64,000 nucleotides of DNA from Bacillota bacterium (lineage in GTDB: Bacteria; Bacillota_I; Bacilli_A; RF39; UBA660), in assembly GCA_021771185.1 (NCBI GenBank), contig JAETPN010000004.1, forward strand, positions 5,903 to 69,902, in the 5' to 3' direction. Shown here piece after piece: positions 51,001 through 54,000 of this stretch. The position numbers were made by a program. How positions within the stretch are numbered: position 1 is the first letter of the stretch; every line of letters begins with the position of its first letter.

Positions 51001-54000
51001 GGCAACCTCTAGTGTAGATACACGTACAGAGATTTTAATACAACAAGCCATGGATCGTTTGATGGAGGGTAGAACAAGTTTTATTATTGCCCACCGTTTA
51101 TCGACGATTAAAAATGCAGATCTTATTCTCGTAATGGATCATGGAGATATTGTAGAACAGGGAACACATAATGATTTATTAAAAAAGAATGGATTTTATG
51201 CAACACTATATAATTCACAATTTGAAGAAGAATAATCTTCTTTTTTTGTATAAAAACATTTTTCTTGTCAATTATAATTATGCATGATACAATGGAAGAG
51301 AAAGTAGGAGGATAGAATGAAAAAGGATAACAAAGAAAAAAAGAGTATTGTTATTATAGGATTATTAGTTGCAATGATCGTTATGGCGGTAGGATATGCT
51401 GCACTAGCTCAACAACTTACGATTAATGGTACAGCTCAAGTTAGTAGTAGTTGGGATATTCATTTTGGCTCTGGAAAGCTAGTGGGTACTGGAAATGAGG
51501 ATCCAAATCACACTGGGGACTCAACGGTAGAAGCAGCGGAGCCTTCCATTAATGCTGATGGAAAATCAACAACCGCAGAATTTAATGTGATATTTAAAAC
51601 GCCTGGAGATTATGCAGAATATGATTTTGTAGTAAATAATGACGGAACTCTTGATGGAAAATTAACTGGGGCAGATGTAGTTGCAACCGCAGCGGATGGA
51701 ACAACAGCGGCTACCTTAACAGAACCATTAGGGATTAATTATGAAGTAACGATTGATGGTGTAGATTGGGCTACTGCAAAAACAAATCAACCAACCATCA
51801 CTGCAGGTAGTACTTCAAAAGTGCATGTAAAAGTATATTGGGATAAAAATGCAACAACCATTCCAGCTACAAATATTAAAAAATTAAAAGCTATTTTTAC
51901 ATATACACAAGCATAAAAACATAAAATAAATAAGTAGAGCTACTTATTTATTTTTTTGTAGAAAAAAGGAATATTTTTCTTTTGGGATAGATCTATACAA
52001 AAGTAGAAAAGTATGATATAATTTAATTGTCTAGAAGATCGGTAGTCGTTTAAGAAAAACCAACACTTAAGCGATAAGGGAATCTAATTCATTTATTGTG
52101 TTGAATACTTATATTTATATAAGGCTCCTAATATAAATGATGTGATGCCCACCTGGGAGACAGGTTTTGTCGTTAAAGATGCCACTTTTAGACGATGTGA
52201 CCACCCGTTTTGGGTGGTTTTATAAAATGAGGTGAAACGATGAAATTGTGTCCTTATTGTAGTGGTGAAATAAAACTAGCAGATCGTGTTTGTACCCACT
52301 GTGGAATGAAAATAGAATCAAATAAAGAAAAACAAACAACGTCAAAACAAAAACAAGAAACGAAGGAAACATATGAAGATGGGTTATATCAGGCCATGGG
52401 TCTAGAGAAGATAGGGCCTTTAAATAAATGGATTACGTTAATTCTTTGTATCTTTTTAGGTATTTTTGGTGTACACAAATTATATGAAAGAAAATATACG
52501 ATGGCTTTATTTTATTTGTTCACTGGTGGTTTTTGTGGAATCGGTGTTCTTCTTGATATTTTTCTTATTTTACAGAAACAAGAAAAATATTATGTATATA
52601 AACAAAGAGTATCGTGAAAAGAAGAGATTCTCTTCTTTTTTTCTTTCTAAATATGATATAATACTACATAGGTGATAAGATGTTTGATCGTTTAGAAAAA
52701 TTAATTGGTGAAGATATACAAAAAGTGAAGAACCTAACTGTCGTTGTTTTAGGCCTTGGCGGTGTAGGAAGTTATGCGGTAGAATCTTTGGTACGAAGTG
52801 GGGTAGGACACCTTATTTTAGTTGATCATGATGTAGTAGATGTGACAAATTTAAATAGGCAACTAATGACTTATCAAAAAAATATTGGTATCTCTAAAAC
52901 ACAAGTTTGGAAAGAACGTATTTGTGAAATAAATCCTTCTTGTAAAGTAGATGTGATCGATGAATTTATTACGAAAGACAATATAGATTCTTTATTCTAT
53001 CAACCTATTGATTATGTTGTGGATGCATGTGATACGTTAGAAACAAAAAAAGAACTCATCAAATATTGTTTAAAACATCAGATAAAGTTTATTTCTAGTA
53101 TGGGAACAGCACAAAAATTAGATCCAACAAAACTAGCGATTACAACGCTTGATAAAACAAGTTATGATCCACTTGCCAAAAAGCTAAGAAAATTGTTAAA
53201 AGAGGAACATATTTCAGGAAAAGTTATGGTTGTTTCTAGTACAGAAACTCCACGACCATTCACGGGAGTGACGCTAGGAAGTTGTGCGTTTGTCCCATCC
53301 GTGGCGGGCTTACTATGTACAAGTTATGTTGTTCGTGATTGTTTAGAGGTGATGTATGAAAACCATTGATCGTTATTTTAAAAAGAAAATTCCAACTATG
53401 AGGGGACAAGTCATTGCGATTGGATGTTTGGATAGTATTTTAAATGAAATTGATAAAAATGATGGAATTGTGACCTGTTATGTATTGAATAATATGAATC
53501 GACCTCAAGAAAAAGGTATGATGAAAGGTCGTAAAAAAAGTGTACATATTAAGAAATTTAAACATAAGTTTAAGAAAAAAAGAACGCATGTGATGATTGT
53601 GGATGCTTTAGAAGTACTTGAATTTTCTAAACGCTTTGTTTCCTCAAGTGTTTATATTACCAAAGAAGATATTTATATATATGCGTCAAAATCCTCAGAA
53701 GAATTGGAACAAATGATCCAAAAGTATTATCGTTATGATGTAGAGCTTTCGAAGGTTTCCTGTACTGATGGGATTATTTATACGATTCATTGTGAACAAG
53801 CAAAAACTTCTCGTTTCAAAGATTTAGGATATCTTATCAAAGATACATGGAACGAAGGAATTGATTTTTTAGGAGACTATTTAATCCATTAATTTGCTTT
53901 CTTTTAAAATTTATGATATAGTATGAATCCGAAAACGGAGGGGAAAGAAAAAAATGAAAGAACAAATTAAAAATACTAGTGTTTATAAAAGACAAAATGA

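Follow-up and report, generated by a model that had tools for sequence, protein, structure and literature searches.

The gene at positions 51317-51916 of a 64,000-nucleotide stretch from a Bacillota bacterium (GTDB lineage Bacteria; Bacillota_I; Bacilli_A; RF39; UBA660; GenBank assembly GCA_021771185.1, contig JAETPN010000004.1, positions 5,903 to 69,902 of the forward strand) probably codes for a small, acidic beta-sandwich protein, made as a precursor and secreted, that serves as a subunit of donor-strand fibres and would belong to a very large, unannotated family of the TasA superfamily and be closest to the archaeal protein AbpX. Judging from sequence comparisons and the genomic context of its relatives, we put the probability of this reading at about 0.6. 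The whole stretch is called the window below, all coordinates refer to it unless stated otherwise, and the gene and its family are referred to by the start position, 51317.

Searches with the 51317 protein alone gave little. The Pfam model PF12389 (Peptidase_M73) matched below threshold (13.7 bits against a gathering score of 22.5 bits, E=0.056), a search of NCBIfam, expected to hold models of the TasA family and of SipW-type signals, gave 0 families at a cut-off as loose as E<=10, and the single sequence found nothing meaningful in the PDB. In a collection of 5.8 billion proteins, 76 relatives were identified, none of which (0/76) has a precomputed Pfam domain, and the only source name recovered among them was "hypothetical protein" of Candidatus Pelethosoma merdigallinarum (Mycoplasmatota incertae sedis). 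A family profile (hidden Markov model, HMM) was built from a 54-sequence alignment of these relatives and compared with all PDB sequences using HMMER: the top two matches were AbpX (9sj2_C, E=2.9e-6; 9rhp_A, E=9.5e-6), with alignments spanning nearly the entire domain, and TasA (8aur and 5of1) followed at E of about 0.14-0.23. Comparison of alignments by hhalign gave 97.0% probability for AbpX (E=1.1e-10, 158 columns, about 14% identity) and 78.9% for a 28-sequence TasA alignment (E=1.6e-5, 63 columns); the published link between AbpX and TasA, included as a control, gave 87.4% (E=3.6e-6, 80 columns). Three core motifs stand out in the 54-sequence alignment (P96-G97-D98, N108-x-G110, and C-terminal Y196-x-Q198), of which the first two align with the PG[AD] and N-x-G of AbpX and with the K-P-G-D...N-x-G-S-L core of TasA, and the third with the C-terminal V-E-Q of AbpX. 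The terminal Q after the last strand also recalls the invariant E-A-x-Q of TasA, as a motif resemblance rather than an alignment. The mature protein has an isoelectric point (pI) of 4.57 and 11.7% aspartate plus glutamate (family medians 4.2 and 11.5%); it shares the low pI (about 4) reported for AbpX-like proteins but is somewhat less acidic in composition than the roughly 15% given for them (bioRxiv 10.64898/2026.01.04.697558).

These sequence comparisons place the 51317 protein in the TasA superfamily but outside the TasA/camelysin family proper, and make AbpX of Pyrodictium abyssi, a TasA-superfamily protein that forms fibrils by calcium-dependent donor-strand complementation (bioRxiv 10.64898/2026.01.04.697558), the closest characterised relative of the family, nearer than TasA. 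The TasA/camelysin-like domain proposed in a first-pass annotation of the gene therefore stands at the superfamily level but not as membership in PF12389 or any NCBIfam family, and AbpX-like TasA-superfamily subunit precursor would be a better name. The sub-threshold PF12389 match, with comparable weak matches in 21 of the 54 relatives (best E=3.5e-5), might also be taken to indicate a secreted metalloprotease of the camelysin type (Peptidase_M73). However, neither HExxH nor any other conserved metal-binding motif is present, the invariant residues are structural only (G, A, L, T, W, N, and Q), and this possibility was rejected as having almost no chance of being correct.

The most conserved part of the family is its N-terminal segment. 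The precursor starts with MKKDNKEKKS, followed by a single hydrophobic segment (residues 11-29 by Kyte-Doolittle hydropathy) and the conserved stretch G26-Y-A28-A-L-x-x-x-L34-x-I36-N-G38-T-A40...W46; of the 16 columns in the 54-sequence alignment that are invariant or nearly so, 10 fall within residues 26-46, with G26 nearly invariant and A28 invariant. In the HMMER alignment, L34/I36/G38/A40 fall on L6/L8/A10/I12 of AbpX, whose donor strand is W2-I12 (bioRxiv 10.64898/2026.01.04.697558), and Y27-A28 fall on the Y-A at -2/-1 of the AbpX precursor (...A-I-G-L-T-Y-A↓Q-W-S-E-T-L-S-L-S-A-T-I, the arrow marking cleavage). The two families would share a [TG]-Y-A↓ cleavage motif and an amphipathic N-terminal strand with alternating hydrophobic residues, although position 2 of the proposed mature protein is L (F in some relatives) in the 51317 family and W in AbpX. 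We propose cleavage after G26-Y27-A28, giving a mature start of A-L-A-Q, because this motif, G-[YF]-A across the family, is conserved, aligns with the AbpX site, and satisfies the -3/-1 rule. Alternative cleavage after A31 (A-L-A↓Q, 51409) is possible for the 51317 protein but unlikely family-wide, since relatives have V, M, or K at this position (A-L-V in a 73%-identical orthologue). The resemblance may be extended to TasA as [GT]-[YW]-A↓A-[LF] via chained alignments only (51317 family to AbpX, AbpX to TasA), in which T-Y-A↓Q-W of AbpX falls on T-W-A↓A-F of the TasA site (...G-G-T-W-A↓A-F-N-D); the TasA donor strand comprises residues 28-38 (PMC9674648). Strong conservation of residues 26-46 would be expected of a segment that has to suit a dedicated peptidase as well as a shared acceptor groove. 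The nearly invariant I-N-G-T-A also contains an N-x-T sequon (N37-G38-T39, 51425..51433), which is I-T-G-T-S in the three paralogs with leucine-rich repeats (LRRs) described below.

A second line of evidence comes from related loci. Scanning one genome per species yielded 79 loci, none of them from the genome of the window (best identity to the 51317 protein 54%), mostly in metagenome-assembled genomes (MAGs) of uncultured gut "Bacilli", "Tenericutes", or Mycoplasmatota and in a few Clostridia. The family HMM detected 202 family genes across them, 192 with a complete domain; 179 of these end within 10 residues of the domain (bare), and 12 continue for >100 residues beyond it. Clustering of neighbouring genes revealed two recurrent families, a signal peptidase I and a DUF5305 protein, in 56 and 54 of the 79 loci, respectively; arginyl-tRNA synthetase (ArgRS), a U32-like protein, and a Tex-like protein also recur. 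The linked peptidase (Peptidase_S26, 25.1 bits) has its catalytic S-x-S-M right after the last membrane segment and a long N-terminal region with multiple transmembrane (TM) segments (median about 8 hydrophobic segments), and the DUF5305 protein (78.6 bits) has two membrane segments. The order is constant: tandem arrays of 1-10 bare family genes lie directly upstream of the peptidase gene (56/79 loci), which is followed by the DUF5305 gene and sometimes by a long fusion or one further family gene. Outside its genus, the 51317 protein is closest (48-54% identity) to such tandem genes directly upstream of the peptidase. The same pair of multi-TM signal peptidase I and DUF5305 has been reported at abpX loci of bacteria and archaea (bioRxiv 10.64898/2026.01.04.697558), and its linkage to the relatives of gene 51317 therefore provides independent support for homology to AbpX; apart from abpX loci, DUF5305 is discussed in the literature for Tafi filaments only.

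The family as a whole is very large, with 11,591 clusters (50% identity) matching the profile at E<=1e-3 and 1,594 at E<=1e-30; multi-repeat DUF11/CARDB-type proteins, which have the PGD...NxG core in common with the family, appear among the weaker of the 11,591 matches. In two loci, L017 (2409..9235) and L011 (2182..7279), a single tandem array of 7-10 bare family genes separates argS from the gene for the signal peptidase; this may reflect subunit diversification or variation. Family genes together with the peptidase and DUF5305 were also observed in a Saccharibacteria-type genome (locus L077, JBJFFO010000003.1, Candidatus Nanosyncoccaceae MAG) and in bins labelled Muribaculaceae and Sphaerochaetaceae (Bacteroidota and Spirochaetota), due either to horizontal transfer or to mis-binning.

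Considering the AbpX homology, the conserved N-terminal segment, and the linked peptidase, the following route may be proposed for the 51317 protein. The precursor would be exported by Sec and cut after G-Y-A (residue 28) by a dedicated multi-TM signal peptidase I acting together with a DUF5305 protein as accessory factor; the genes for both would lie outside the window. The freed amphipathic strand A29..V42 (A-L-A-Q-Q-L-T-I-N-G-T-A-Q-V, with L34/I36/G38/A40 facing in) would then enter the open groove of a neighbouring subunit, and donor-strand complementation repeated in this way would produce a chaperone-free surface fibril. Paralogs with LRR or other modules, having the same strand and core, could join the same polymer and display adhesin modules. 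We infer from the sequences both that fibres form and that the LRR fusions co-assemble with the 51317 protein.

Several observations weigh against this proposal. Prediction by AlphaFold2 (AF2) with the family alignment gave a confident model of a seven-strand beta-sandwich after the hydrophobic N-terminus and no extra module (full-length model: predicted local distance difference test score, pLDDT, 82.4; trimmed mature form: pLDDT 86.4, predicted TM-score 0.80), but the N-terminal segment was modelled as a helix continuing the TM segment (full-length) or as coil (trimmed), not as a strand. A strand destined for a neighbouring subunit could account for the position of residues 29-47 outside the predicted sandwich, but this position does not in itself argue for one. 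Foldseek comparison of both models with the PDB gave no match at E<=1e-3, and TM-scores to the TasA fibre (8aur) and the Sulfolobus 0406 thread (7pnb) are only about 0.40; the weak top matches are nevertheless mostly to subunits of donor-strand filaments (CfaB, 7pnb, 8aur, and CanA). In addition, the N-terminal register is shifted by two residues between HMMER and hhalign, and the PGD...NxG core motif is also found in non-polymerising DUF11/CARDB-type immunoglobulin-like (Ig-like) domains. The acidic residue that binds Ca2+ at donor position 4 of AbpX is Q/S/A in the 51317 family, without any conserved acidic residue; calcium-triggered assembly as in AbpX may thus not apply and should not be assumed. 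Finally, Pfam and the neighbour-cluster HMMs detected no signal peptidase (Peptidase_S26/S24) or DUF5305 homologue within the window, and the processing machinery is therefore assumed for the host genome: its core operon, if present in this genome, lies outside the 64 kb and may include more bare subunits.

Some of these observations would also fit a surface protein that does not polymerise, in which an uncleaved N-terminal helix serves as membrane anchor and the sandwich as a stalk or spacer for the adhesin modules of the paralogs, the bare copy being module-less. AF2 models residues 5-37 as one continuous helix, no peptidase gene lies in the window, and membrane-anchored surface proteins are common in reduced Mycoplasmatota-like gut bacteria, a lineage inferred here via the about 52%-identity Candidatus Pelethosoma homologue; the C-terminal modules (DUF6273, DUF285, and LRR_5) found in about 40% of the best family representatives also suit a stalk. 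However, a plain anchor leaves unexplained the near-invariant G-Y-A-A-L...L-x-I-N-G-T-A, the linkage to signal peptidase I and DUF5305 (56/79 loci), and the full-length homology to a solved donor-strand fibril, and we consider it quite improbable. In Foldseek, the full-length model also matched the Sulfolobus AAP type IV pilus weakly (E=8e-3), raising the question of a pilin-like subunit assembled by a type IV pilus machine. This was rejected and appears next to impossible: the hydrophobic segment is not preceded by a class III signal (G/A↓F-T-L-x-E), and among the recurrent neighbour clusters of the 79 loci, where signal peptidase I and DUF5305 are the conserved ones, no family resembles an assembly ATPase, platform protein, or prepilin peptidase.

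A donor-strand fibre subunit related to AbpX remains the preferred reading, and gene 51317 itself is well delimited (Table 1). As the first-pass annotation had claimed, it is a stand-alone 199-aa gene with its own promoter, ribosome-binding site (RBS), and terminator, and its product consists only of a signal segment and one domain, with one N-terminal hydrophobic segment, a single predicted beta-sandwich, and no fused module. No overlapping open reading frame (ORF) of >=60 aa exists on the opposite strand across 51317..51916. Promoter-like sites are not enriched in this part of the window (19 found in 49000..54000 against 26.1 expected from shuffles; G+C of the window 31%), and the promoter match alone is weak evidence because such sites are no commoner than in shuffled sequence. 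However, in two orthologous contigs (L080 and L084; 85% and 73% protein identity), the extended -10 element (TGATAnAAT) is conserved in position, the RBS is kept as TAGGAGGAT / TAGGAGCGT, and a hairpin plus T-run occurs at the matching place 3' of the gene; the ratio of nonsynonymous to synonymous substitutions (dN/dS, Table 1) indicates purifying selection on the coding region. The promoter is credible because the -10 element, RBS, hairpin, and coding sequence are all conserved across orthologues. The terminator stem (51923..51954, loop GAGC, about -11.5 kcal/mol by RNAfold) runs into the T-run and was missed by a consensus terminator scan because it has fewer than the minimum of 3 G-C pairs. 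The orthologous contigs share one gene order, with an upstream gene running off the contig end, the family gene, and a TM2-domain gene; in the window, an ABC transporter gene takes the upstream place. Close orthologues occur in sequencing samples such as SRR28883716, SRR22514075, and SRR30592947. Together, the conserved signals and coding sequence confirm a real gene and a separate (monocistronic) transcription unit. Directly 3' of its terminator lies a 6S RNA (SsrS) gene (52025..52198, + strand; Rfam RF00013, 46.7 bits against a gathering score of 46.4) with its own promoter-like site at 51994..52022 (TATACA-17-TATAAT, plus TG), whose region "GATCTATACAAA" is conserved in both orthologous contigs.

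The family HMM identified five dispersed members in the window (Table 1): the bare gene 51317, three LRR fusions, whose existence had been anticipated in the first-pass annotation and is borne out by LRR_5 matches, and one fusion to another C-terminal module. All five have their own promoter and hairpin terminator, and they lie singly among housekeeping genes, those for UvrC, MutL, prolyl-tRNA synthetase (ProRS), TetR plus two ABC transporter genes, ThiF, SMC, YlmH, RuvX, and YceG. The C-terminal module of the 506-aa paralog has no Pfam match but is weakly similar to the C-terminal modules of other fusions and of DUF6273-like neighbours. For the short LRR fusion, the ORF list begins at TTG 54444, but the true start is probably ATG 54531 (285 aa), since AGGAG and TTGACA-18-TATAAT lie just upstream and the family HMM match starts at ORF residue 38. 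The three LRR paralogs share a near-identical terminator hairpin, GAAGAAGATTAAATAnTTAATCTTCTTT (46399..46440, 55389..55425, and 59810..59850), and a similar layout of promoter and RBS, which indicates that the flanks were copied along with the genes and that the duplications are probably recent.

Table 1. Gene 51317, its parts and signals, and the other family members in the window. CAI, rough codon adaptation index, with rank out of 47.
Feature	Position	Strand	Evidence	Promoter	RBS	CAI (rank)
Coding sequence, 199-aa precursor of AbpX-like / TasA-superfamily subunit (bare)	51317..51916	+	ATG to TAA; family HMM E=3.7e-58; dN/dS 0.10-0.27	10/12 plus TG	AGGAGGA	0.592 (13/47)
Sigma-70-type promoter, TTGTCA-17-TACAAT, extended -10 (TG)	51265..51293	+	10/12 consensus matches plus TG
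RBS AGGAGGA, 4 nt 5' of ATG	51306..51312	+	read from sequence
Predicted signal peptide, residues 1-28 (basic n-region; hydrophobic 11-25; G26-Y27-A28 as -3..-1)	51317..51400	+	hydropathy, conservation, alignment
Proposed N-terminal donor strand and linker, residues 29-47 (ALAQQLTINGTAQVSSSWD)	51401..51457	+	conservation, AbpX alignment
Predicted beta-sandwich core, residues 48-199	51458..51913	+	AF2 models, motifs
Intrinsic terminator, 14-bp A/U-rich hairpin and T-run	51923..51957	+	RNAfold; hairpin kept in orthologues
Paralog, 506 aa: family domain (about residues 19-175) and roughly 320-aa C-terminal module	37508..39028	+	family HMM E=5e-17
Paralog, 394 aa: family domain and BspA-type LRR	45214..46398	+	family HMM E=1.2e-47; LRR_5 E=4.6e-53	TTGACT-17-TATAAT, 11/12	AGGAG	0.601 (11/47)
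Paralog, 285 aa: family domain and short LRR	54531..55388	+	family HMM E=8.8e-47; weak LRR_5 match	TTGACA-18-TATAAT, 12/12 (read off printed sequence)	AGGAG	0.561 (19/47)
Paralog, 380 aa: family domain and BspA-type LRR	58667..59809	+	family HMM E=1.3e-46; LRR_5 E=1.8e-31	TTGACA-18-TATAAT, 12/12	AGGAG	0.565 (17/47)

The first-pass annotation had also taken the expression signals of gene 51317 as the mark of an abundant major subunit and the LRR fusions as minor or tip components. Some points would suit such a division of labour: the window contains no bare family member besides gene 51317, the bare form is usual in relatives and makes up the tandem arrays beside the peptidase, to which its closest relatives beyond the genus belong, and major, minor, and tip subunits have been predicted in the abpX literature (bioRxiv 10.64898/2026.01.04.697558). 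Its RBS is somewhat longer and stronger than those of the LRR paralogs, the one expression signal that favours the claim, but the promoters of the paralogs are nearer to consensus, and codon adaptation, a noisy index here because only rpsB and tsf served as reference, is similar for bare and LRR genes (Table 1). The bare protein and the N-terminal domains of the LRR paralogs are only 34-35% identical and the donor segments differ (QQLTINGTAQV against QILTITGTSGI), so that co-assembly is plausible but not implied; and the LRR fusions carry no tip hallmark, since both donor strand and core are kept. Moreover, any core operon of this genome, possibly with more bare subunits, lies outside the window. 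We therefore regard the assignment of gene 51317 as the abundant major subunit with co-assembling LRR components as doubtful. From the family-wide picture (179 of 192 bare, beside the peptidase), it is reasonable to regard bare subunits as the likely fibre body, but whether this particular copy is the major, one of several structural, or a specialised subunit is not established, and the sequence does not decide. A bolder version, in which uncultured, reduced-genome gut Bacilli (RF39- or Mycoplasmatota-like) build chaperone-free "polyadhesin" donor-strand fibres by co-polymerising bare subunits and fusions to BspA-type LRR, DUF285, DUF6273-like, and other modules via one strand, with specificity set by which of the dispersed, separately promoted paralogs are on and with an assembly trigger unlike that of AbpX, is conceivable but unlikely.

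Several other genes in the window are also of note. A 3161-aa protein with Ig-like surface domains (Bact_surface_Ig-like; 2260..11745, + strand; rough CAI 0.677, among the highest in the window after rpsB and tsf) shows weak similarity at its C-terminus to the module carried by the 506-aa paralog, and short minus-strand ORFs recurring about every 231 nt from roughly 6600 to 8450 suggest internal tandem repeats. Beside it lies a gene for a 256-aa low-complexity, mucin-like protein (11828..12598, + strand) with the highest CAI among non-reference genes (0.684). Two adjacent genes between mutL and proS (40900..42144 and 42148..43590, + strand; 414 and 480 aa) have no Pfam match at E<=0.01.

Comparison with characterised filaments shows where the 51317 family agrees with known systems and where it departs from them. 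It resembles AbpX in mature size (about 160-170 aa) and low pI and, in homologous loci outside the window, in its peptidase and DUF5305 partners, whereas the AbpX host is a hyperthermophile and that of gene 51317 a low-G+C gut bacterium, gene 51317 is monocistronic and away from any peptidase, and many family members carry C-terminal adhesin-like modules. TasA likewise relies on a dedicated signal peptidase, SipW, and forms a donor-strand fibre (PMC9674648), but it has additional insertions and a C-terminal tail, its length is greater by about 60 residues, the TM helices of SipW are few in contrast to the long multi-TM part of the linked peptidase, and no TapA-like gene corresponding to the sipW/tapA operon was seen with the monocistronic gene 51317. 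Archaeal filaments (the 0406 thread, AbpA bundling pili, CanA cannulae, and Tafi) are also built of beta-sandwich subunits with chaperone-free N-terminal donor strands, as would be the case for the 51317 protein, and haloarchaeal Tafi loci carry DUF5305 as well; however, Tafi subunits use the Tat (twin-arginine translocation) pathway, these filaments have neither significant sequence matches to the family nor LRR-type fusions, and the structural matches to 7pnb (probability 0.93, TM-score 0.40) and CanA are weak. The top Foldseek matches were to CfaB of CFA/I (4y2l; E=1.6e-3, probability 0.97). Chaperone-usher pilins such as this also have an Ig-like subunit completed by the N-terminal strand of a neighbour, with alternating hydrophobic residues and a central Gly, but a periplasmic chaperone and usher are neither possible nor present for the 51317 protein, and TM-scores are about 0.33. 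As far as the models go, the resemblance to CfaB is analogous or very remote and does not indicate family membership, and chaperone-usher membership was rejected on the ground that Foldseek gives a weak structural analogy only.

Donor-strand fibres of the TasA superfamily with a dedicated signal peptidase and DUF5305 are a known kind of system, and an AbpX-like clade has already been reported in Bacillota (bioRxiv 10.64898/2026.01.04.697558). What is new is that an unannotated family of this type is very large in uncultured, host-associated low-G+C bacteria, that its genes are found both in tandem arrays and fused to LRR_5, DUF285, DUF6273-like, and other modules, and that its members in this genome are dispersed, each with its own promoter. 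To our knowledge, surface structures and adhesion have hardly been studied in uncultured, host-associated low-G+C bacteria with small genomes. The operon of subunit array, multi-TM signal peptidase, and DUF5305 provides a concrete handle for annotation, and a way for such fibres to carry adhesins is suggested by the fusions to LRR and other modules. If the proposed reading is true, it would extend matrix fibres of the TasA/AbpX donor-strand type to uncultured, host-associated low-G+C bacteria with small genomes.

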